Positions 30,548-62,749 of a stretch of 64,000 nt of DNA are shown here, in pieces; the first letter of the stretch is position 1; each line of letters begins with the position of its first letter. Below the pieces are notes generated by a model. That model was not told the origin of the DNA and ran no database searches. It saw only the letters and a list, made by a program, of their open reading frames with translations. The DNA comes from Candidatus Woesearchaeota archaeon (GTDB taxonomy: Archaea; Nanobdellota; Nanobdellia; Woesearchaeales; WAPY01): positions 62,001-126,000 of the forward strand of contig JBNAUL010000002.1 of NCBI GenBank assembly GCA_049700835.1, written 5' to 3'. The position numbers and the translations under genes are program-made.

Positions 30548-31552
<1,005 letters not shown>

Positions 31553-32029: not shown

Positions 32030-33274
32030 ATGAAAGATAAAGAATGGAAAGAAAAAAATGCAAAAAATTCATCTGATAAATCTGACAATGTTCTTGTAGG
32101 GATTTACAAATGCGATTCTTACAATCTTGATAAAATCTACAATAAGATAAAAAAGGGTTTAATGGATATAAATTTTGATTTCTCAAAATACAAGAAAAAT
32201 GGAAAAAAGAAACCATTATGCTTGTTGAAACCAAATATTATAATTCCAATAAAACCAAACAGCGCTGTTGTAACGCACCCATTGATTGTTGAGGCAGCAA
32301 TAAAAATATTTCTTGAAAACGGTTTTAGGGTTGTAGTAGGAGAGAGCGACGGCTCAGCAACAACCTCCAAAGGATTTGTTGAGACTGGAATTAAAGAGAT
32401 TGCTGAAAAGTATGGTGTTGAATGCATCGCTTTTGAGGATTACAAAAAGAACAGATTGGTAAAAATAAAGAATGAAAAAAACATAGTGCTTAAAGAATTT
32501 TTTGTATCAAAAATAATCAGAGATGCGGATTTAATAGTTAATCTTCCAAAACTTAAGACCCATGTTTTAACAATGTATACAGGTGCTGTGAAAAATATGT
32601 TTGGGGTTATTCCAGGAGCAACTAAATCAAAGTATCATGGAATTGCAAAAACTCCTCAGAATTTTTCAAACTTGCTCTTGGACATCTATTATACTGTAAA
32701 GCCTGAATTGAATATAATGGATGGGATTGTTGGAATGGAGGGCAACGGGCCTTCAAGAGGAATTCCAAAAAAAGCAGGTTTAATCTTAATAAGCGAAAAC
32801 GGAATTGCCCTTGATTTAGTAGCAACAAAGAGCATTGGATTTGAAAACATAGTTACGCTTAACAAGGTTGCTTTGAAAAGAGAGAACAATAATCTGCAGA
32901 GCAGAATAAGAATTGTTGGAGATTTTGAAAGAGCGCCTATAATAAGATTTAAAAAACCAATGCAGTTGAACAAGGGGATATTCTATTTTGTGCAGTCAAA
33001 TGCTGGCAGGGTGCCTAAAAAACCATTCATCGATAAAAACAAGTGCATAAAGTGTTTAAAATGCTATTCAAATTGCCCTGCAAGAGCAATATCAATTGTC
33101 AATGAATATCCAAAGATAAATCCAAAAAAATGCATTGCATGTTATTGCTGTTATGAACAATGCCCTGCAAATGCTGTCAAACTGAGGAGCAGCGCTCTGA
33201 CAAAAACATACGAATTACTTAAAAAAAGTTTATTGAAAATAAAGAGTCCGTTCTTAAAAAAGAGGTGGTTTTAA
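32030..33274 (+). CDS. DUF362 domain protein with C-terminal 2x[4Fe-4S] ferredoxin
   Basis: LLKPN, THP, NLPKLKTH, TGAVKNMFG, DGIVGMEGNGP; CIKCLKCYSNCP and CIACYCCYEQCP. Confidence 0.9.
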   Translation: MKDKEWKEKNAKNSSDKSDNVLVGIYKCDSYNLDKIYNKIKKGLMDINFDFSKYKKNGKKKPLCLLKPNIIIPIKPNSAVVTHPLIVEAAIKIFLENGFRVVVGESDGSATTSKGFVETGIKEIAEKYGVECIAFEDYKKNRLVKIKNEKNIVLKEFFVSKIIRDADLIVNLPKLKTHVLTMYTGAVKNMFGVIPGATKSKYHGIAKTPQNFSNLLLDIYYTVKPELNIMDGIVGMEGNGPSRGIPKKAGLILISENGIALDLVATKSIGFENIVTLNKVALKRENNNLQSRIRIVGDFERAPIIRFKKPMQLNKGIFYFVQSNAGRVPKKPFIDKNKCIKCLKCYSNCPARAISIVNEYPKINPKKCIACYCCYEQCPANAVKLRSSALTKTYELLKKSLLKIKSPFLKKRWF

Positions 33275-34497
33275 TGAGTTTAAACCACTATGAAATCTTA
33301 AGCAATATAAAAAGTTTAGAAGCACTTAAGAACAAGATAAGAGGAAAAACAATACTCTTGAGGACAGATTACAATGTCCCTATTCAGCAAAAAAATTCAA
33401 GGAAGAAAATAGTGGACGATTCAAGGATAAGATCTTCTCTCAAAACAATAAGGTTCCTGCTTAAGGAAAAAGCAAAGATAATAATCATAAGCCATCTCGG
33501 AGAGCCAAAGGGTTTTGACAAGAATTCGAGTTTAGAAATAGTTTCCAATAGGCTTTCAAGGCTGTTAAAAAAAAGGGTTTTGTTCTGCAAAGATCTTGTT
33601 GGAGAAAAAACAGACATTACTGTTGAAAATTTTAAAAACAACAGAAGGGCTTTTGTGCTGATGCTTGAGAACCTAAGATTCAATGAAGGAGAAACAAAGA
33701 ACGATGTGAATTTCGCCTCAAAATTGGCCTCTTATGCAGATTATTTTGTGTTTGACGCATTTTCAGTTGCTCACAGAGAGCATGCTTCTGTTGTCAGCAT
33801 TGAAAAATTCCTGCCAAGCTATGCAGGATTTTTATTCTACGATGAACTTAAGAATTTATCTAATATAATTGAAACAAGGGAAAGACCATTTACATTGATT
33901 GTTGGAGGAGTTAAGATTTCAACGAAACTTCCTTTTATAAAGAATTTCTTGGACAAGGCAGATTTTATACTCATTGGAGGGGCTATGATGTTCAATTTTT
34001 TAAAAGCAAAAGGTTTGGAAGTTGGAAAATCAATTTATTCTCAAGAAGAAGTTGAGATTGCATATCAGATACTTGCTTCTGGAATGGATAAAATAATAAT
34101 CCCAAAAGATGTTGTGGCATCAAAGGAGATTTCTAAGGACTCAGAAACAAAAATATTTAACTCAGAAAAGATAGAAAGCGATTACATAGGTTTGGATATT
34201 GGGCCTCAGAGCATAGAAGAATTTAAGAGGATTCTAAGAAACTCCAAGACAATTGTTTGGAACGGACCGCTTGGTTATTATGAAATAAAGAAATTCTCAA
34301 AAGGAACAGCGGAGATAGCAAAATTCATCTCAAAACTTAGATGTGATAAATACGCCTGCGGAGGTGACACTTTGGCAATCTTAAATAGTTTTAGATTAAA
34401 GAATAAGTTCACATTTGTTTCAACAGCAGGAGGAGCTGCTCTTGAATTCTTGTCAGGAAAGGAACTCCCTGGAATAAAAGCCCTACATTTAAAATAA
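33274..34497 (+). CDS. pgk: Phosphoglycerate kinase (bacterial type)
   Basis: RTDYNVP, LENLRF, DAFSVAHR, DIGP, WNGPLG, GGDT, STAGGAALEFL; TAATG overlap with the upstream gene. Confidence 0.95.
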   Translation: MSLNHYEILSNIKSLEALKNKIRGKTILLRTDYNVPIQQKNSRKKIVDDSRIRSSLKTIRFLLKEKAKIIIISHLGEPKGFDKNSSLEIVSNRLSRLLKKRVLFCKDLVGEKTDITVENFKNNRRAFVLMLENLRFNEGETKNDVNFASKLASYADYFVFDAFSVAHREHASVVSIEKFLPSYAGFLFYDELKNLSNIIETRERPFTLIVGGVKISTKLPFIKNFLDKADFILIGGAMMFNFLKAKGLEVGKSIYSQEEVEIAYQILASGMDKIIIPKDVVASKEISKDSETKIFNSEKIESDYIGLDIGPQSIEEFKRILRNSKTIVWNGPLGYYEIKKFSKGTAEIAKFISKLRCDKYACGGDTLAILNSFRLKNKFTFVSTAGGAALEFLSGKELPGIKALHLK

Positions 34498-41558: not shown

Positions 41559-43409
41559 ATGAAAAACAAGATTATAACTTTTGCAATATTTGTTCTGTTT
41601 AGTTTATTTTGCAGTTTATTGGCAAGCGCGGCAACACCGACAGTAACTTTGATTACGCCTTCTCACAACACTGTTTTGGCTCCAGGTACTGTGAATTTTG
41701 TTTACAATGCAACAAGCAACTATGCTTTAATAAACTGCAGTTTGTACACAAACGAAACAGGAACATTTTCCTTGGTAGAAACAGACAATTCTGTAATCAA
41801 TGGAACAAACCAGTTCACAAGGGAATATACTTCAAGAATTGTTTTAAATTGGAACATAAAATGTTATGACAGCACTGCATTTGCATGGGGCACAGCAAGA
41901 ACGCTTTACATAAATAATCCTCCTATATGGTTGATGCCATTGCCTTCTCAAACAGTAAGCGAGGATTCTGACGCGCAGTCAATAAACCTGACAGATTTTG
42001 CATCAGACGCTGATTTTGACGCTTTGACATTCAGCATCTCAGAGGAAAATATTTCAAAAGTTGATTGCAACATAAGCGGAACATTGCTCTATTTTAAACC
42101 GGCTCCAAACTATTTTGGAACAACATACTGCAAGGTAAGGGTAAATGATGGAATATCAACTGCAAATACAACATTAGAAATAACAGTAAATCCAATTCCA
42201 GATGCTCCTATAGTGAGCGACATCCCAAATCAAACAGTAACCGTAAATCAAGCATTAAATATTCAAGTAAATGCTTATGACCCTGATGGCGATCCATTGA
42301 CATATTCTTTGGTGCAAAAACCTAACGGGATGAGCATAACAAACACAGGATTGATAACTTGGACACCAACGAACACAGGAAATTATTTGGTAACAGTTCA
42401 GGTTAGCGACGGGACTTACACTTCAACAAAATCATTTTATGTAAATGTTGCGGTTCCAAATAAACTTGAGATTTACAATGTTGAAGTAACAGTAGACGGT
42501 TCAAGGGATTCAAGCGTTGGTTCAGGAGACATAATAACTATAAAACCAGAATCCCAAGTAAGCGTTAAGGTTTCATTAAAGAACATGTACACTTCAAGCG
42601 AGAGAATTACGATAAAAGATGTTGTTTTAACAGTTACCGCAGTGGGAATAGACGACGGGGACGACATTGAGGAAGAAACAAGCGAATTCAACATAAGGTA
42701 CAATACAGTTGTTTCAAAAACACTTGACTTTAAGATACCATTAAAGGTTGAAGAAGAAGAGTATGATTTGATTATTCATGCAGAAGGAGAAGATGAAAAT
42801 GGTTATGAACAGGTTGCAGAGATTACAATCAAACTTAGCGTTGACAAGAAGAACCACGACCTGAGAATAAGAAGCGTGAATTTGATGCCAGAGGAGATAA
42901 GCTGCGACCGAACAATAAGCTTTGAAACTCAAATAATAAACTTGGGAAGCAGCTATGAGGACGAAGCTGGTTTGAGCGTAGAGAGCCAGCAGTTGAATAT
43001 TCTCAAGAGAGAGTCGTTTGAATTGAGCAATGATCCTTTTGACGAAGACAACGAGAAGCGATTTGCATACACATTCACAATCCCAGACGATACAAGGGCA
43101 GGAACCTATTCAATCATCGTCAGGACTTATTACAACAAAGACATTCTAAGCGACCAAAACACGGTGCAGCTTACAGTGAAGGATTGTTCAGCAGCAACTC
43201 CTACTCCAACTCAAACAGCAACTCCAACTCCTACTCCTACGCAAACAATCGTTGTAGAGACGCCAACTCCAGCGGTGACAGCAGTTCCTGTGAGCGAAGA
43301 GAAAAAGTTCACAGAAACAACAGAATACATGATTTTGCTTATTGCTGCGAATGTAATAATTGTTGCAATAGTATTGATACTTTTGGTAAAACTGTTTTTG
43401 AGAAAATAA
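41559..43409 (+). CDS. Cell-surface protein with cadherin/Ig-like repeats, Thr/Pro linker and C-terminal TM anchor
   Basis: Signal peptide; NNPP...SEDS...SDADFDALTF; DAPIV...DPDGDPLTYSL...GLITWTP; TPTPT linker; TM followed by RK. Confidence 0.88.
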   Translation: MKNKIITFAIFVLFSLFCSLLASAATPTVTLITPSHNTVLAPGTVNFVYNATSNYALINCSLYTNETGTFSLVETDNSVINGTNQFTREYTSRIVLNWNIKCYDSTAFAWGTARTLYINNPPIWLMPLPSQTVSEDSDAQSINLTDFASDADFDALTFSISEENISKVDCNISGTLLYFKPAPNYFGTTYCKVRVNDGISTANTTLEITVNPIPDAPIVSDIPNQTVTVNQALNIQVNAYDPDGDPLTYSLVQKPNGMSITNTGLITWTPTNTGNYLVTVQVSDGTYTSTKSFYVNVAVPNKLEIYNVEVTVDGSRDSSVGSGDIITIKPESQVSVKVSLKNMYTSSERITIKDVVLTVTAVGIDDGDDIEEETSEFNIRYNTVVSKTLDFKIPLKVEEEEYDLIIHAEGEDENGYEQVAEITIKLSVDKKNHDLRIRSVNLMPEEISCDRTISFETQIINLGSSYEDEAGLSVESQQLNILKRESFELSNDPFDEDNEKRFAYTFTIPDDTRAGTYSIIVRTYYNKDILSDQNTVQLTVKDCSAATPTPTQTATPTPTPTQTIVVETPTPAVTAVPVSEEKKFTETTEYMILLIAANVIIVAIVLILLVKLFLRK

Positions 43410-43546: not shown

Positions 43547-44194
43547 ATGAATGAGAAAACGCTCTCCAATAAAGATTTAGAGTTCAACAATGAAAAGAAA
43601 AACATTCTTAAAAAAATGATTGTTTATGACAAATCAAAAAAGGGAAGCATCGATGAAGAGATAAAAGAGCTTGTTTTTCTAATAAATTCCATTGAAAACT
43701 ACTATACAACGAGTTCCTGCGCAGGAAGGATAATGCTAATTAAAGTTGACAAGAACAGAAGAAAGGACAAGTCAGAATGGTTGTATGTAACTCACAAAGA
43801 AGCAAAATTTAAAGAGATGAAGAGAGCTTTGGAAGAAGGAATAAAGAATGCAAGAGAAGGGGAAAGTATTTGGTTCAAACAAGAACCGCTGATACTTCAT
43901 GTGTGCGCAAAAAACCTTGAGAGCGCAAATAAGATTTTAACTATTGCAAGAGATTCCGGGCTAAAAAAATCAGGAATCATAACGCTTTCCCGCAGAATAA
44001 TAATTGAGATTGAAGGCACAGAGAACATAAGCGCTTTGGTTGCAAAGAATTGCAATAAAGAGAAAATTATCCTAACAGATGATTTATACCTAAAAGCCTT
44101 GGTTGACGAAGCAAATCGCAAGATGCTCTTGAATAAGTCTAAAAACAGGAATTTTTTTGAGAGAATAAAAAGGGAATTTGGGTTTGAAAGATAA
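43547..44194 (+). CDS. taw3: tRNA wybutosine-pathway methyltransferase Taw3/TYW3
   Basis: DKSKKGSIDEEI, YYTTSSCAGRI, WLYVTH, EPLILHV, SGLKKSGI. Confidence 0.92.
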   Translation: MNEKTLSNKDLEFNNEKKNILKKMIVYDKSKKGSIDEEIKELVFLINSIENYYTTSSCAGRIMLIKVDKNRRKDKSEWLYVTHKEAKFKEMKRALEEGIKNAREGESIWFKQEPLILHVCAKNLESANKILTIARDSGLKKSGIITLSRRIIIEIEGTENISALVAKNCNKEKIILTDDLYLKALVDEANRKMLLNKSKNRNFFERIKREFGFER

Positions 44195-45174: not shown

Positions 45175-45484
45175 ATGATAGAATAATTAGTTGTTGTTTT
45201 TATTAAACTTTTTAACTTTTTAATAATGGTAAAAATATTAATGGAATGCTTATTGTGCGCTTCTCTAAAATTCCAATAAAAAAATTGCTTCACACAGACA
45301 ATCAATTATTTCTAATTGCTTTCTCTTGCATAGTTGAAATTCATTTTATATAAATAAAATAAAAGCAATAAAATAAAAGCAGAAGCTTAAATGCAAATGT
45401 TTTCAAATTTTTTGATTATTCTATGCTCTTGCTAAATTTTTAATATTGACAAAATTTTTAAATTTTGAAACAAAACCAAAGAAT

Positions 45485-45946
45485 ATGAATGCCTACGAAG
45501 AGAAACTTTGGAAATTCGTTGAGAAGCACAGCGTCAAAGCAGAGTTCTTTAGGTTTGAAGAATCATGCCACAGTGTTAAAGAAGCTGCACAAAGAATTCA
45601 TGCTGAAAAGAATGACTTGGTAAAGAACATTTGTTTTGTTTTATCTGACGGAGAAATTATTGTTGCAATTGTAAGGGGAAATGACGGAATAAGGGTTTCA
45701 AAAATAAGAGAAATATTTTCAAAGAATGCGAGAATAATGGGTGCAGAAGAGATACTTCAAAGAACAGGGTACCCTTGCGGAGGAGTTCCTTCATTTGGTT
45801 TTAATACGGTATTTTTAATGGATAAGAAGGTTATGGAAAAGGAATTTGTATACACAAGCGGAGGTTCTGAAAATTCTCTGATTAGAATCAGCACAACAGA
45901 TCTCATAAAGCTTAACAAAGGCATAATAGCAAATATAAGAAAATAA
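45485..45946 (+). CDS. YbaK/EbsC aminoacyl-tRNA deacylase family protein
   Basis: HSVKEAA, LVKNI, TGYPCGGVPSFG, TSGGS. Confidence 0.9.
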   Translation: MNAYEEKLWKFVEKHSVKAEFFRFEESCHSVKEAAQRIHAEKNDLVKNICFVLSDGEIIVAIVRGNDGIRVSKIREIFSKNARIMGAEEILQRTGYPCGGVPSFGFNTVFLMDKKVMEKEFVYTSGGSENSLIRISTTDLIKLNKGIIANIRK

Positions 45947-45997: not shown

Positions 45998-46375
45998 ATG
46001 AAATCAAAATTTTTTAAAAAACAAAACAAGTTAATGACTAAATGCTTGGTCGTAATTACTACTACGAATAAGATGGAAAATGCAGAGAAGATAGCCACTA
46101 TTTTATTAAAAAACAGATTAGTAGCATGCGCTCAAATACTTAGCATTAAGAGTTTTTACTGGTGGGAGAACAACATTCAAAAGGACAAAGAGTTTTTGTT
46201 GTTTTTAAAAACAAAATCTGAAAACTATAAGGTTGTTGAGAAAAAGATAATTGAGAATCACAATTACAAATTACCAGAAATCATTGCTTTAGAAGCAAGT
46301 AAGGGAAGTAGAGATTATTTTGAGTGGATTGAAAGAACATTGAATCGCAAAAACAAGAATAAAAACTTAAAATGA
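45998..46375 (+). CDS. cutA: Divalent-cation tolerance protein CutA
   Basis: LVACAQI, SFYWWE, E..L..KT, HNYKLPEII, YFEWI; SD AGGAGG. Confidence 0.93.
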   Translation: MKSKFFKKQNKLMTKCLVVITTTNKMENAEKIATILLKNRLVACAQILSIKSFYWWENNIQKDKEFLLFLKTKSENYKVVEKKIIENHNYKLPEIIALEASKGSRDYFEWIERTLNRKNKNKNLK

Positions 46376-46396: not shown

Positions 46397-47410
46397 ATGA
46401 AAAAAAATTTTTGTCTTGAAGATTTCAATTATGAAGTTCCTAAAGAATTAATCGCGCAAAAACCTATAATTCCAAGGGACCATGCAAGAATGATGGTTGT
46501 AAAAGATAAGATTTATCACAAGCATTTTTATCAACTTCCAGAATACTTGGAAAAAGGAGATGTTATTGTAGTTAATAACACGCGAGTTATACCTGCAAAA
46601 TTTTTTGGGAAAAAAGAAACAGGAGGAAAGGTTGAAGTCCTGTTAATAAAAAATTTAGGAGAAAATGTTTGGGAATGCTTAGTAAAAGGTAGACGAATAA
46701 AGGAAAACACAAGCTTGTTCTTTGATGGTTTAAAAGCAAAAGTAGAATCAAGAAAAGAAGGAAAGTTCATACTGAATTTTAATAAGAAAATAAGAAATGA
46801 GATTTTCAATAAAGGAGAAATACCTCTGCCAAACTACATAAAAGAGAAACTTGAAGACAAAGAAATGTACCAAACAGTTTATTCAAAGAGATTAGGAGCA
46901 ATAGCCGCCCCAACAGCAGGACTTCATTTCACAAAAGAATTAATTGAAAAATTAAATTCAAAAGGGGTTAGATTTGTAGAGATTACGCTGCATGTTAGTT
47001 TGGGAACTTTCAAACCAGTGAAAAACATTGAAACTCATAAAATGGATGAAGAATACTATGAAATCAGTGAGGAATCTGCTTCTATGATAAATGAAGCTTT
47101 TGAGAACAAAAATAGTGTTTTTGCAGTCGGAACCACAGTTGTGAAAACATTAGAAACAGTTTCGGATAGCAATGGTTTAATAATCCCAAAAACAGGACTT
47201 TCTGATCTGTTCATAAAACCTGATTACAAGTTCAAAACTAAACTTAGTGCAATGATAACCAACTTTCACATTCCAAAATCCACTTTAATAATGATGGTTT
47301 GCGCTTTTGGAGGTTACGAAAGAGTTATGAATGCTTATAAAGAAGCAATAAGAGAAAAATATAAATTCTTTAGTTTTGGGGATTCGATGCTGCTTTTCAG
47401 AGAGCAGTAA
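46397..47410 (+). CDS. queA: S-adenosylmethionine:tRNA ribosyltransferase-isomerase
   Basis: FNYEVPKELIAQKP, NNTRVIPA, YQTVYS, AAPTAGLHFT, AVGTT, TNFHIPKSTL, YKFFSFGDSM. Confidence 0.96.
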   Translation: MKKNFCLEDFNYEVPKELIAQKPIIPRDHARMMVVKDKIYHKHFYQLPEYLEKGDVIVVNNTRVIPAKFFGKKETGGKVEVLLIKNLGENVWECLVKGRRIKENTSLFFDGLKAKVESRKEGKFILNFNKKIRNEIFNKGEIPLPNYIKEKLEDKEMYQTVYSKRLGAIAAPTAGLHFTKELIEKLNSKGVRFVEITLHVSLGTFKPVKNIETHKMDEEYYEISEESASMINEAFENKNSVFAVGTTVVKTLETVSDSNGLIIPKTGLSDLFIKPDYKFKTKLSAMITNFHIPKSTLIMMVCAFGGYERVMNAYKEAIREKYKFFSFGDSMLLFREQ

Positions 47411-47484
47411 TTCAGCAGAACTTTTAGAATTAATAATAAAAATTTGCAAGTTTGATATTGTTTTAAACCTTTTGTATTTTATTT

Positions 47485-48048
47485 TTATTTTGACAGTCGA
47501 ATAGAAAAAACGCAACCGCAGTAGTTTTGCCTGTAAATGTTGCATTCCTTACATTTTTTAACGCTGAACTTAAAGCCTTCTTGTTTTTTCAGATTTATTT
47601 CTACAAAATTAATTCCTTTTTCCTCAGCTAAGTTTTTGCCTACTCTATTTATCAATTTACTGTTTTTATTTTCTCCTAATGTTAATGTTGTTGAAATGAA
47701 CTTTATGTTTTTTGAAAGCGCAAAATCAGCTGTTTTCTTTAATCTTACTTTAAAACAAGCAGAGCACCTTTTTCCTCCTTCAGGTTCTTTATCATAATCT
47801 TTTATTTTCTTTATCTCTTTAAACCACAAATCAATATCATACTCTCCTTCATAGAATTTTATACTATTTAAATTGCAATAATTTCTTGCATTTTCCAACC
47901 TTTTCTTGTATTCTTCGTAAGGATGAATGTTTGGGTTAAAGAAGAAAACTATGATTTCATAATTCTTTAATCTGTCAATGGCTGTAATCAAGCATGGAGC
48001 GCAGCAGCAGTGCAGCAGCAATCTTGGCTTATTCATGCGCCTCATCAC
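47485..48048 (-). CDS. queH: Epoxyqueuosine reductase QueH (DUF208)
   Basis: LLLHCCCAPC, FFNPNIHP, EGGKRCSACF, YRQNYCGC; real start may be ATG 48036. Confidence 0.94.
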   Translation of the reverse strand: MMRRMNKPRLLLHCCCAPCLITAIDRLKNYEIIVFFFNPNIHPYEEYKKRLENARNYCNLNSIKFYEGEYDIDLWFKEIKKIKDYDKEPEGGKRCSACFKVRLKKTADFALSKNIKFISTTLTLGENKNSKLINRVGKNLAEEKGINFVEINLKKQEGFKFSVKKCKECNIYRQNYCGCVFSIRLSK

Positions 48049-48156: not shown

Positions 48157-48822
48157 ATGCAACAGGAAAAATTTGAAAGAGAGATACTCGTTGTTCCAAG
48201 AAATATTCTCTTTGCAGAGAAAAGTTTTCAGGGATTTCTCAATTTTGAAGAATACAACTACATCCCAATAATACTTAAAAATTTCATTTGGATTAAGAGA
48301 AAAGAAGCAGAATTCAATCCAAAGTATCAGCAAATAATACCATACGGAGTTATTGTTGATTCAAAATCAAGAAGCATCTTTGTTTACAGAAGGAGTTCTG
48401 GGCAGGCATATGCTGAAAAGAGATTATACAATAAAATTTCATTAGGGGTTGGAGGGCACATTGAAAAAGAGGACTTGGCAGAAGAAAAAAATTACTCAGT
48501 AAAAAATATTTTTGAGAGATGCCTGTTGAGAGAAATTAGAGAAGAAATAAATGTTGAGAACGCTCTTAATCTATTCCTGTTCAGCCTGTTCGGGTTCTTG
48601 AAGTTAGAAGACAATAGCATTGACAAAGACCATTTTGGAATTGTCTATCTAATTGAAATGCCAAAATCCAAAATGAAGCTGAACAAGGGAGAGATTAGTT
48701 CTGGAAAATTTGTGAGTTTTAAAGAACTATGCTCGCTGAGAGAACTAGCAGAGGGTTGGACATCTGCATTAATAGATCCATTGGTTGATTATTACGAAAA
48801 TACGAATCAAAGCAAAAAGTAA
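48157..48822 (+). CDS. Nudix-family hydrolase (YmaB/COG4112-like)
   Basis: QQIIPY, EKRL...SLGVGGHIE, REIREEI, HFGIVY. Confidence 0.85.
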   Translation: MQQEKFEREILVVPRNILFAEKSFQGFLNFEEYNYIPIILKNFIWIKRKEAEFNPKYQQIIPYGVIVDSKSRSIFVYRRSSGQAYAEKRLYNKISLGVGGHIEKEDLAEEKNYSVKNIFERCLLREIREEINVENALNLFLFSLFGFLKLEDNSIDKDHFGIVYLIEMPKSKMKLNKGEISSGKFVSFKELCSLRELAEGWTSALIDPLVDYYENTNQSKK

Positions 48823-48847
48823 TAAAAATAAAAAACAAGAAATTCAA

Positions 48848-49600
48848 ATGAGCGAAGCAATAGAAATAAGCAGAAACGCGTTTGCTGTAAAACTTTCAAT
48901 TTACCTTAAAGAACACAAAACTCTTATTCTGTCAGATTTTCACATAGGCTTGGAAGAGGCGCTTCAAAAGCAGGGATTTTTGATTCCAAGATTTCAACTC
49001 AAAAGCATAATTGATAATTTGAACAAAACTTTTGAAATTCTTGAAAAGAAAAAATTAGAGGTTGAAAGAATAATAATAAATGGAGATTTAAAGCACGAGT
49101 TTGGAACGATTTCAGAGCAGGAATGGAAAGACACTTTAAAAGTAATTGATTTTTTAAAGGAAAAAACCAAAGATTTAGTTTTAATAAAAGGAAATCACGA
49201 CACGATTTTAGGGCCCATCGCATCAAAGAAGAGCATCAGTTTGGTAGAATATCTTATTTTAAATGATACTTTAATAGCGCATGGAGACAAAATAATCAGA
49301 GAAGCAAACAGCAGCAAAATCAGTAGGATAATAATTGGGCATGAGCATCCTGCAATCAGTTTGAGAGACGGGTTAAGAGTTGAAAAGTTCAAAACCTTTT
49401 TAATAGGAAAGTGGAACAAAAAAGAATTGATTGTTATGCCTTCATTCTGCTTTGTGACAGAAGGAACAGACATCCTGAGAGAAGAGCTTCTTAGTCCTTT
49501 TCTTAGGGAAGCAAACATAAAGAAATTTAGGGTTGTAATATCTGAAAAGGAACTCTATAACTTTGGAACAGTTGAGAAAATACTTGATGCTACTGATTGA
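48848..49600 (+). CDS. Metallophosphoesterase (archaeal ICC-like, COG1407)
   Basis: SDFHIG, NGDLKH, GNHD, HGD, GHEHPAI, MPSF. Confidence 0.9.
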   Translation: MSEAIEISRNAFAVKLSIYLKEHKTLILSDFHIGLEEALQKQGFLIPRFQLKSIIDNLNKTFEILEKKKLEVERIIINGDLKHEFGTISEQEWKDTLKVIDFLKEKTKDLVLIKGNHDTILGPIASKKSISLVEYLILNDTLIAHGDKIIREANSSKISRIIIGHEHPAISLRDGLRVEKFKTFLIGKWNKKELIVMPSFCFVTEGTDILREELLSPFLREANIKKFRVVISEKELYNFGTVEKILDATD

Positions 49601-49622: not shown

Positions 49623-50168
49623 TTATTTGTAAAACTTGTTAAGCAAATCTGTTTTTGTTATAACCCCTGCATAATGCTTTGAGTCCTGCACAAGAACAAG
49701 AGGAAAGTGTTTCAGCAATTCTGAGATAACATTCAAATCGGTGTTTATTGAAACTATGGGAGGTGCTTCTTCCATTATTTCCTTTACAAACTCCACTTTC
49801 TTTCCTTCAGATAAAACTTTTATTATTGAAGATTCTGATATTAAGCCAATGCACTTACCTTTGCTTATTACAGGCATTTGTGAAATCTTGCGCTGCTTCA
49901 TAACAAGCACAACATCTTTTATCCTGTTGTTCGGACTTGCAGAAAACACCCTCTTTGTCATTATGGAAAACGCTTTTTCAGATTTTCTTGATTTGCATTG
50001 CTCTAAAACATTTATTATTTTATAAACCTTTGAGTAAGAAGGGTCTATTTTCTCTGATTCTATCTTTGCAATCAATGACTGCGAAACTCCGCTTAGCTTT
50101 GCCAACTCTTTTTGAGTAATCCCAAGATTTTTCCTTAGGTGCTTTATCTGCGAAGGGTTTTCTATCAT
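49623..50168 (-). CDS. XRE-HTH + CBS-domain transcriptional regulator
   Basis: LGITQKELAKLSGVSQSLIAKIE followed by a CBS pair (ISQMPV...GVITKTDL). Confidence 0.92.
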   Translation of the reverse strand: MIENPSQIKHLRKNLGITQKELAKLSGVSQSLIAKIESEKIDPSYSKVYKIINVLEQCKSRKSEKAFSIMTKRVFSASPNNRIKDVVLVMKQRKISQMPVISKGKCIGLISESSIIKVLSEGKKVEFVKEIMEEAPPIVSINTDLNVISELLKHFPLVLVQDSKHYAGVITKTDLLNKFYK

Positions 50169-61993: not shown

Positions 61994-62749
61994 TTAAAAT
62001 TGGTATTTTATTACTTCTAAACCATTGTTTCCAAAAACTAGGGTGTGAAATCCTGGCTGAACATTTGTGTTTCTCATCTTTTTTATTTCAAGTATTCTCT
62101 GAATGGTTCTGCCCATGTTTATATCCTTGAGCCTCAAAACGCCGTCACAAACAAATTCTGAAACAGTGTCCCTTGTCAGATAAGCGCCCTGTTCTGCTGA
62201 ATCAGCGATGTATAGGGTTGTTGCTCCTATTTCATTAATCTTGTTTATGAAAACATAGATAAACTGCTTTATCTCTTGGTCATAGCCCAAAGAGCTTGGT
62301 TTTAACTCTGCTTTTGAAAACAGCACATCCTTGTCGTAACCTGCCTTTAAACTTATCTTGTACATTGGAGCGTTTATTGAAAGTATGGAAAGAGAATCAA
62401 TTACTATTCTCTTTGCTCCTACTTCCTTTGCTGTTTTTTCTATTAAAGCAATTATGTCCATATCAGTTATATCAACAGGTATCTTTAGAAAAATAATTTT
62501 TTTCTTCTTTTCCAAATCCTCAAAGTCCTTGAAAAAAGCCCTTGCCTGCTCTCTCAATTTTGCAGGTTTTTCCTCAATGCTGACATAAATCCCTGGCTCG
62601 TTGTTCTTTGCTCCTGTGTAAATGTACTGCAATGCAAAAACAGTTTTTCCAGCTCCAGGGCCACCGCAAATGAGAATAGAAGAACCAATTGGAAAGCCAC
62701 CTTCAAGTAACTCGTCCAAACCCTTTATTCCTGTCTTAGCCCTTTCCAA
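61994..62749 (-). CDS. Single-domain KaiC/RecA-superfamily ATPase
   Basis: TGIKGLDELLEGGFP, GGPGAGKT, IEE, IVIDS, CDGV, KMRNT; TTG start with SD GAGGTG. Confidence 0.92.
   Translation of the reverse strand: MERAKTGIKGLDELLEGGFPIGSSILICGGPGAGKTVFALQYIYTGAKNNEPGIYVSIEEKPAKLREQARAFFKDFEDLEKKKKIIFLKIPVDITDMDIIALIEKTAKEVGAKRIVIDSLSILSINAPMYKISLKAGYDKDVLFSKAELKPSSLGYDQEIKQFIYVFINKINEIGATTLYIADSAEQGAYLTRDTVSEFVCDGVLRLKDINMGRTIQRILEIKKMRNTNVQPGFHTLVFGNNGLEVIKYQF

Follow-up and report, generated by a model that had tools for sequence, protein, structure and literature searches.

The division between queuosine (Q) at position 34 of tRNA in bacteria and eukaryotes and archaeosine at position 15 in archaea is a textbook difference between the domains of life. 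Here, we examine a 64,000-nucleotide stretch of DNA from a Candidatus Woesearchaeota archaeon (hereafter the host), which carries the queuosine genes queA and queH; the stretch as a whole, referred to as the window, corresponds to positions 62001–126000 of the host's contig C2. A third gene of the pathway, tgt, lies on another contig. Such genes have been described in archaea before: in 34 archaeal genomes, of which 12 belong to the DPANN group, Castelle et al. (2021; PMC8204110) found the queuosine pathway in complete or partial form, and they named co-localised QueA, QueH-like and Tgt proteins (Figure 4 of that paper and its Supplementary Table 5), the TGT family used there (fam00366) merging archaeosine and queuosine enzymes. 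The occurrence of queA and queH in a Woesearchaeota-type archaeon is thus already in print, as a preliminary description of this DNA had suspected; PMC8204110 was the only report of DPANN queuosine genes in the literature searched, which lay outside subscription journals. Among bacteria, Bartonella, Pelagibacter and Chlamydia possess only tgt and the transporter QPTR/YhhQ, and preQ1 has been proposed to remain in the tRNA of the first two (Quaiyum et al. 2024, PMC11570991). The present analysis adds genomic context, in the form of leads: the type of Tgt, the lack of arcTGT, the scale on which Tgt occurs alone, the missing precursor route and a linkage of tgt to aspS and asnS. Neither the census counts nor this linkage in our sample of 301 genomes was found in print.

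The queA gene (46397..47410, + strand) is an open reading frame (ORF) of 337 amino acids that encodes a tRNA preQ1(34) S-adenosylmethionine (SAM) ribosyltransferase-isomerase. The product matched Pfam PF02547 with 405.6 bits (E 1.9e-121) over profile positions 1–322 of 322 and exceeded the cut-offs of two NCBIfam equivalogs, NF001140 (418.4 bits; cut-off 324) and TIGR00113 (372.3 bits; cut-off 267.45). Its top solved structure was Thermotoga maritima QueA (1vky, 1.6e-98), with residues 7–333 aligned, and 42 columns were invariant across 28 archaeal QueA sequences. That 46397–47410 is QueA is, judging from these matches, beyond reasonable doubt, and ribosyl transfer from SAM to preQ1-tRNA is its predicted activity. 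The queH gene (47485..48048, − strand; DUF208, epoxyqueuosine reductase) encodes 187 amino acids from a GTG start, with alternative ATG starts at 48045 and 48036. Its product matched PF02677 with 197.3 bits (cut-off 23.5) over profile positions 1–173 of 175, and its top solved structure was T. maritima QueH (7lc5, 1.2e-36), whose three cysteine pairs (CC, CxxC and CxC) all align to cysteines in the host protein. The two genes converge, their stop codons separated by a T/A-rich spacer of 74 bases (47411..47484). Thus, the full-length, convergent queA and queH of the preliminary description are real.

The preliminary description had reasoned that a bacterial-type Tgt would have to be encoded outside the window, and this is the case. 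The sole TGT-family gene of the host genome lies on contig C1 (79294–80400, + strand; 368 amino acids). Its product scored 407.5 bits on TIGR00430, the Tgt(34) equivalog (cut-off 306.75), 164.2 bits on the arcTGT profile TIGR00432, under the cut-off of 350, and 22.9 bits on DpdA; it lacks the archaeal C-terminal domains (C1/C2/PUA). The best structural matches were T. maritima 2ash (6.3e-94) and Zymomonas mobilis entries (near 1e-88), followed at lower levels by eukaryotic QTRT1 (1e-60) and Pyrococcus horikoshii arcTGT (2.6e-21). In Z. mobilis numbering, counted on the printed alignment, the host enzyme keeps D102, D156, C158, Q203 and D280 as well as the zinc ligands C318, C320, C323 and H349. 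Profile and structure matches alike mark it clearly as a Tgt of the bacterial position-34 type, and a genome devoid of such an enzyme, an outcome that the preliminary description had considered, is not what we found. We detected no arcTGT in the host, where the only TGT-family match is the bacterial-type gene and TIGR00432 gave no match at E <= 1e-60 (ArcS was not searched separately). The substrate pocket reads GGLRIGE in the host and GGLAVGE in Z. mobilis, with Leu231 kept, and it differs from the GG[LS][AS]G motif carried by queuine-salvaging bacterial TGTs (PMC11570991). Val233Gly opens the pocket for queuine (PMC3660597), and Cys158Val is a further pocket-opening change (PMC3660597; PMC5699537). 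Since the host enzyme retains Cys158 and has a bulkier Ile at position 233, it looks like a preQ1 enzyme; Arg232 is unusual, and a preference for preQ1 is predicted.

Candidate substrates are encoded in the same genome. ARAGORN identified tRNA-Asn(GUU), tRNA-His(GUG) and an intron-bearing tRNA-Tyr(GUA), and a manual pattern search located tRNA-Asp(GUC) at C2:185857–~185951 (+ strand), about 300 bases from this tRNA-Tyr gene and with a T-loop insert of approximately 20 bases. All four GUN tRNAs (Asn, Asp, His and Tyr) have U33-G34-U35, which is the element that bacterial Tgt recognizes (PMC5699537).

We consider it likely, at a probability of roughly 70%, that the host carries out the three closing reactions of bacterial queuosine synthesis on tRNAs of its own, starting from salvaged preQ1. 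In such a pathway, the bacterial-type Tgt would exchange G34 of tRNA-Asn, -Asp, -His and -Tyr for imported preQ1, QueA would add the ribosyl moiety of SAM to preQ1 to yield epoxyqueuosine, and QueH, an iron-sulfur enzyme, would reduce epoxyqueuosine to queuosine. The three genes are intact and retain the residues conserved in their families, and queA, queH and tgt are very probably functional; from them we infer what the enzymes do, that preQ1 of bacterial origin is the base imported and that queuosine is the end product.

Salvage is suggested by what the genome lacks. Our search for the de novo route covered QueC, QueD and QueF (QueE and FolE were not searched): QueD and QueF had no match in the host genome, and the two weak QueC matches turned out to be ThiI and GMP synthase. 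Because none of the three was found, salvage is the only visible precursor route. The expected import is preQ1 rather than preQ0, since without QueF salvaged preQ0 could not feed QueA; the earlier proposal of salvaged preQ0 or preQ1 therefore stands for salvage and for preQ1 but not for preQ0. The salvage profile Qng1/Q_salvage (PF10343) also had no host match, and it was equally silent in all 14 named control genomes.

We then compared the host with 301 genomes of its phylum, each at least 90% complete, by intersecting gene sets; two unpublished genomes (G242 and G243) are counted in the tallies but contributed no sequence to the analysis. The TGT family was above cut-off in 168 genomes, and there was no TGT-family match in 131. 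Only four genomes, all small and outside the host's order, encoded arcTGT (TIGR00432, E <= 1e-60), and it was above cut-off in none of the same-order genomes. Subtraction leaves 164 of 301 genomes with a non-arcTGT Tgt; TIGR00430 scoring did not cover all 164, and the 150 matches listed had about 390–486 bits on the TGT profile. QueA was present in 41 genomes, representing 35 of 225 genera, and 40 of these 41 also had Tgt. QueH was intact in 32 genomes, of which 30 also had QueA. Eleven genomes had QueA without QueH; QueG as the general reductase in such cases was discarded, as it occurred in just one of the five tested (G160). Most Tgt-bearing genomes, 123 of 164, had neither QueA nor QueH; G009, G004 and G219, each a single contig, are among them. 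QueF was over cut-off in two of the 301 genomes.

Gene order adds to this picture. By hand count from coordinates, about 25 of the 30 genomes holding both have queA and queH no more than 3 kb apart, convergent in all but one, and the convergent genes abut or nearly do so in 16 related genomes. One genome with the pair and tgt, G024, is a single contig, and tgt adjoins queA in G147, G035, G170, G275 and G003. The genes queA, queH and tgt are stably inherited in the host's archaeal order, and their co-occurrence and adjacency support a functional coupling of Tgt, QueA and QueH across the lineage. YhhQ/QPTR was intact in 54 genomes, 43 with Tgt and 12 with QueA. It stands directly beside Q genes in G035 (yhhQ-queH, queA-tgt) and in G071 and G297 (yhhQ-queA-queH); it is also present in 32 of the 123 Tgt-only genomes, often adjoining tgt, and it adjoins tgt in eight QueA-less genomes (G174, G214, G255, G109, G228, G196, G046 and G073). 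The linkage of yhhQ to Q genes supports precursor salvage in the lineage. One relative, G161, contains remnants of all three genes (QueH with three internal stops; QueA and TGT at about 20 bits) and looks like a case of the pathway in decay.

Several observations weigh against a working queuosine pathway in the host. QueH matched no NCBIfam family at E <= 0.001. The Tgt pocket, with Arg for Ala232 and Ile for Val233, is neither canonical nor of the Gly233 type. The tRNA-Asp(GUC) gene was called by neither ARAGORN nor the Rfam tRNA model and was identified by eye. A precursor transporter had been among the genes to look for, and YhhQ/QPTR (Vut_1), QueT, HlyIII and ureide permease had no match in the host genome; there are at least two generic major facilitator superfamily (MFS) genes (C2:314881–316095 and C3:26646–27677), with no preQ1-specific sign. 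YhhQ is likewise absent from 29 of the 40 genomes with both QueA and Tgt. Finally, the literature searched contained genomic prediction alone and no biochemical proof of archaeal Q, in agreement with the preliminary description.

These points bear most directly on an alternative in which the genes are intact and the pathway is mostly idle: Tgt would exchange guanine for guanine, or the precursor would arrive through contact with a host or neighbour cell, and Q would be rare or conditional. The failure to find any of four known precursor-transporter families, or QueC, QueD and QueF, fits this alternative, as do the remnants in G161, which indicate that decay occurs in the lineage. However, each of the three genes is full-length and keeps the invariant catalytic residues, and QueA varies between 40 and 76% identity across the order yet keeps its 42 invariant columns, which points to continued selection. 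Moreover, importers of these bases arise in several families (PMC11130926, from which our list of known families was taken), and MFS genes are present. We therefore regard an idle pathway as unlikely.

Tgt variation among relatives bears on whether the enzyme might insert another base. We aligned 101 archaeal Tgt sequences with MAFFT: 39 of the 40 from QueA-bearing genomes (G130 was left out) and 62 of the 124 from genomes lacking QueA, these being picked from the highest-scoring ones and from different families. The catalytic Asp102 and Asp280, Asp156 and the zinc ligands were invariant in all 101. Position 158 (Cys, Val or Met) did not separate QueA-bearing from QueA-less enzymes. A queuine-type Gly233 pocket, which might have been expected in QueA-less relatives, occurred in none of their 62 sequences in the MAFFT alignment, nor in the 39 from QueA-bearing genomes, though a reading without gaps would place Gly at 233 in one clade that MAFFT had gapped. 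This well-supported clade of 29 of the 101 sequences has a pocket one residue shorter (GG[SA][LFM]G[KR] or GS[ILV]FG[DEN]) that lacks Glu235, and it is found both with and without QueA (for example L039, L049, L054, L097 and L106). Gly232 (GGLG[IML]GE) was commoner without QueA, in 18 of 62 as opposed to one of 39 sequences, but its distribution follows tree clades, and it was set aside as a functional sign of QueA loss. A FastTree phylogeny rooted with four arcTGT sequences largely tracked the family codes and required 20 switches of the QueA label, no fewer than 12 being dictated by branches with good support. QueA and QueH were therefore repeatedly lost (or gained), whereas Tgt persisted.

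The Tgt could then insert a different salvaged base, either queuine, the base inserted in eukaryotes and Chlamydia, or preQ0, with QueA and QueH acting elsewhere or being dispensable. The non-canonical GGLRIGE pocket, the 123 of 164 Tgt-bearing genomes that manage without QueA and QueH, and the 29-sequence clade with the shortened motif are all in keeping with such a role. Set against it, the host keeps QueA and QueH, which are sensible only after preQ1; its residue 233 is Ile, Gly being found there in none of the 101 sequences as aligned by MAFFT (in the ungapped reading, the 29-sequence clade has it), and Cys158 is kept. Furthermore, bacteria with only tgt and QPTR and a GGLAVG pocket have themselves been proposed as preQ1 users (PMC11570991). 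Another base is thus distinctly improbable, and salvaged preQ1 remains the favoured substrate.

De novo production of preQ1 by enzymes that have diverged too far, or are too unrelated, for recognition is more improbable still. The absences rest on profile searches in a genome that is 98.66% rather than 100% complete, which makes them strong but not absolute. On the other hand, QueD and QueF gave no match at all, the QueC matches belong to other PP-loop enzymes, the control genomes responded as expected, and QueF passed its cut-off in just two of 301 genomes of the phylum; a pathway of four to five steps is unlikely to lie concealed in a genome of 1.07 Mb.

The host assembly consists of four contigs with 1,071,587 bases and an estimated contamination of 0.25%, and contig C2 is 439 kb long. 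A Pfam search of the other 57 ORFs of the window found archaeal/eukaryote-type information-processing genes on both sides of queA and queH, among them genes for Rpp14/Pop5, proteasome alpha, SBDS, exosome Rrp4, Rrp41 and Rrp42, Rpb6, TFS, Rpb7, the acidic stalk protein and ribosomal S24e and L10P. The GC content of the window is flat (0.28–0.36), and ARAGORN found several intron-bearing tRNA genes in the genome. The host genome is archaeal. A search for sequencing runs containing this DNA listed three DNA data sets labelled 'hot springs metagenome' (shares 0.78, 0.22 and 0.05) and none of RNA; these labels are not taken as a statement of habitat. The strongest argument against a chimera, which the preliminary description had raised as a possible flaw, is comparative, namely the same pair in related genomes, and together with the archaeal markers on both sides on a 439-kb contig it indicates that queA and queH are not an assembly artefact. 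The fusion of a bacterial fragment to an archaeal contig in assembly or binning is barely credible: although the three proteins are as similar to those of Bacillota and Thermotogota (44–52% identity for QueA) as to those of same-order archaea (40–76%), the pair is flanked by these markers at unchanged GC content, recurs in the same orientation in about 25 independent related genomes including the single-contig G024, and encodes a QueA that groups, at 100% support, with four other archaeal QueA (families f1 and f19).

The origin of the host QueA is less sharply defined. It is 40–76% identical to other QueA of the order and, among the matches listed, 44–52% identical to QueA of Bacillota, Fervidobacterium, Methanoperedens and another Methanobacteriota archaeon. 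The sequences for comparison were the best 80 of an arbitrary 600 loci; with 32 of these 80, FastTree placed archaeal QueA in three groups, and with 24 of them, a quick IQ-TREE tree placed 28 of 29 DPANN QueA on one side of a branch, the remaining copy, from G130, being nested in Bacillota. An approximately unbiased (AU) test, which covered all 29, rejected a single clade of them (p 0.003); the grouping of 28 was seen only after the IQ-TREE tree had been built. In the IQ-TREE tree, two groups suffice for the archaeal QueA, one of 28 sequences and the other the G130 copy. The G130 QueA (locus L004), which outscores all others of the set on Pfam (459 bits) and lies within Bacillota with strong support, may either stem from a recent transfer of its own or sit on a contaminant contig. 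These trees would allow for a single ancient acquisition together with one or more separate events (or contamination of G130), and no donor can be named.

The neighbourhood of tgt provides a further, unexpected feature of the lineage. We clustered the ORFs within 5 kb on either side of tgt in the host and 40 long-contig relatives (loci L218–L257). Across these 41 loci, the commonest neighbour by far was a class IIb aminoacyl-tRNA synthetase: aspS and/or asnS lay within 3 kb of tgt at 20 of 41 loci and in 17 of 32 family codes, divided between QueA-bearing (9 of 19) and QueA-less (11 of 22) loci. A bacterial-type AspRS with a GAD domain was encoded at 14 loci (an exemplar scored 801 bits on NF001750), often divergent from tgt, AsnRS at 10 loci and an archaeal-type AspRS at three. 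The order in the host is asnS (C1:76331–77626, − strand; NF003037, 502 bits), archaeal-type aspS (C1:77749–79143, − strand; NF003483, 484 bits), tRNA-Pro(UGG) and tgt (together C1:76331–80400), and no bacterial-type aspS was found in the host genome. By a rough estimate, the chance that a given gene falls within a 7-kb span of a 1.1-Mb genome is well below 2%. Since the relatives are not independent, the linkage is inherited synteny and not 20 separate events. It connects tgt to the synthetases of two of the four substrate tRNAs, across both types of AspRS and in several orientations, and fits an anticodon-directed role of Tgt, including in QueA-less genomes. A tgt–aspS link in archaea was not found in the literature searched, nor does the Q-gene neighbour table of PMC8204110, in its stored form, include a tgt–aspS/asnS linkage.

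Another recurrent tgt neighbour was of a different kind. At 12 of 41 loci, we observed tandem triplets of proteins of about 190 amino acids with about five transmembrane segments and without a Pfam match, usually back to back with a Translin-family gene (L221:8832–10548, L228:815–2567, L236:1536–3422, L252:1555–3379 and L256:9027–10736). The idea that these membrane proteins import a Q precursor is unsupported, as the host homologues (C2:417835–419290) are far from tgt, queA and queH.

Given that arcTGT occurs in no same-order genome and in four of 301 overall, that Tgt occurs in 164 of 301 and that aspS/asnS linkage is seen at 20 of 41 loci, we tentatively suggest that a bacterial Tgt replaced the G15 archaeosine enzyme in the host's order and became a genomic partner of the AspRS and AsnRS genes; this broader proposal is possible, though we would lean against it at present. 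If it is true, about three-quarters of the Tgt-bearing genomes (123 of 164) would stop at Tgt, leaving preQ1 or another scavenged 7-deazaguanine at position 34, and a minority including the host would complete the pathway with QueA and QueH. The system would depend on bacterial preQ1, as suggested by the rarity of QueF (two of 301), with entry into the host through some transporter, and the pathway would signal that these archaea depend metabolically on neighbouring or host bacteria.

The genes around queA and queH include further tRNA-related functions. Upstream lie taw3 (43547..44194, + strand), encoding a TYW3-family wyosine methyltransferase, an archaeal/eukaryotic-type tRNA modification enzyme (PF02676, 169.7 bits; 133.3 bits on NF047731, under the cut-off of 200), a nucleotidyltransferase-like gene, a gene with a YbaK-like tRNA editing domain (45446..45946, + strand; PF04073, 76.9 bits) and cutA, encoding CutA1 (45998..46375, + strand; PF03091, 115.7 bits). 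The YbaK-like gene and cutA are co-oriented with queA, and co-transcription of queA with both is possible, as cutA ends 21 bases upstream of queA. On the other side, a NUDIX gene (48157..48822, + strand; PF00293, 31.1 bits) is divergent from queH and is followed by genes for an SbcD_rel_arch phosphoesterase (48785..49600, + strand; TIGR00024, 191.1 bits; cut-off 115.2) and a regulator with HTH_3 and a CBS pair (49623..50168, − strand; PF01381, 52.2 bits; PF00571, 70.9 bits). Pfam and NCBIfam matches thus bear out the archaeal-type flanks (taw3, a COG1407-type phosphoesterase and HTH-CBS) named in the preliminary description. The queA/queH region is about 70% A+T, with TATA-like strings throughout. 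Elsewhere in the window, positions 41559–43409 (+ strand) encode a predicted surface protein of 616 amino acids whose N-terminus is signal-like and which contains Big_9 and cadherin-like domains, a linker rich in Pro and Thr, and a membrane anchor at the C-terminus, and a gene with DUF362 and 4Fe-4S ferredoxin domains (32030–33274, + strand) sits between the GAPDH (30560–31552) and phosphoglycerate kinase (33265–34497) genes, overlapping the start of the latter, pgk.

Archaea with a bacterial Q system blur the domain split between Q34 and archaeosine, as had been noted for DPANN in 2021, and the host is a clean, nearly complete example in which a position-34 Tgt is present and no arcTGT, precursor synthesis or known importer was found. 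Confirmation by tRNA mass spectrometry would, within the literature searched, prove chemically for the first time that an archaeon contains Q; it would also point to preQ1 as a bacterial metabolite for which these ultra-small archaea have to rely on their community.

The closest known systems include the DPANN and Methanosarcinales sets of PMC8204110, in which these three bacterial-type genes likewise occur in organisms of the host's kind (Woesearchaeota and other DPANN). Those genes are co-localised, whereas the host tgt lies on another contig beside aspS and asnS; in the parts covered, that study does not separate Tgt types, count Tgt-only genomes or discuss the source of the precursor. The archaeosine system shares a homologous transglycosylase fold and a precursor family of 7-deazaguanines with the host pathway (PMC5699537). 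It differs in that arcTGT was not found in the host, the target is position 34 instead of 15, and the precursor would be preQ1 instead of preQ0. Bacteria that have only tgt and QPTR share a salvage-only life in reduced genomes, paralleled by the 123 Tgt-only relatives; unlike them, the host keeps QueA and QueH, lacks YhhQ and would apply a bacterial enzyme to archaeal tRNAs. The late bacterial Q pathway, for example in T. maritima, finally, furnishes the top structures of all three host proteins (2ash for Tgt, 1vky for QueA and 7lc5 for QueH). The host differs in being an archaeon with intron-bearing tRNAs and a GGLRIGE rather than GGLAVGE pocket, in which no queC, queD or queF, no YhhQ or QueT and no queA–tgt operon was found (queE was not searched). 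The catalytic Asp residues, the zinc site and the QueH cysteines are conserved, and the order of reactions is presumed to be the same.

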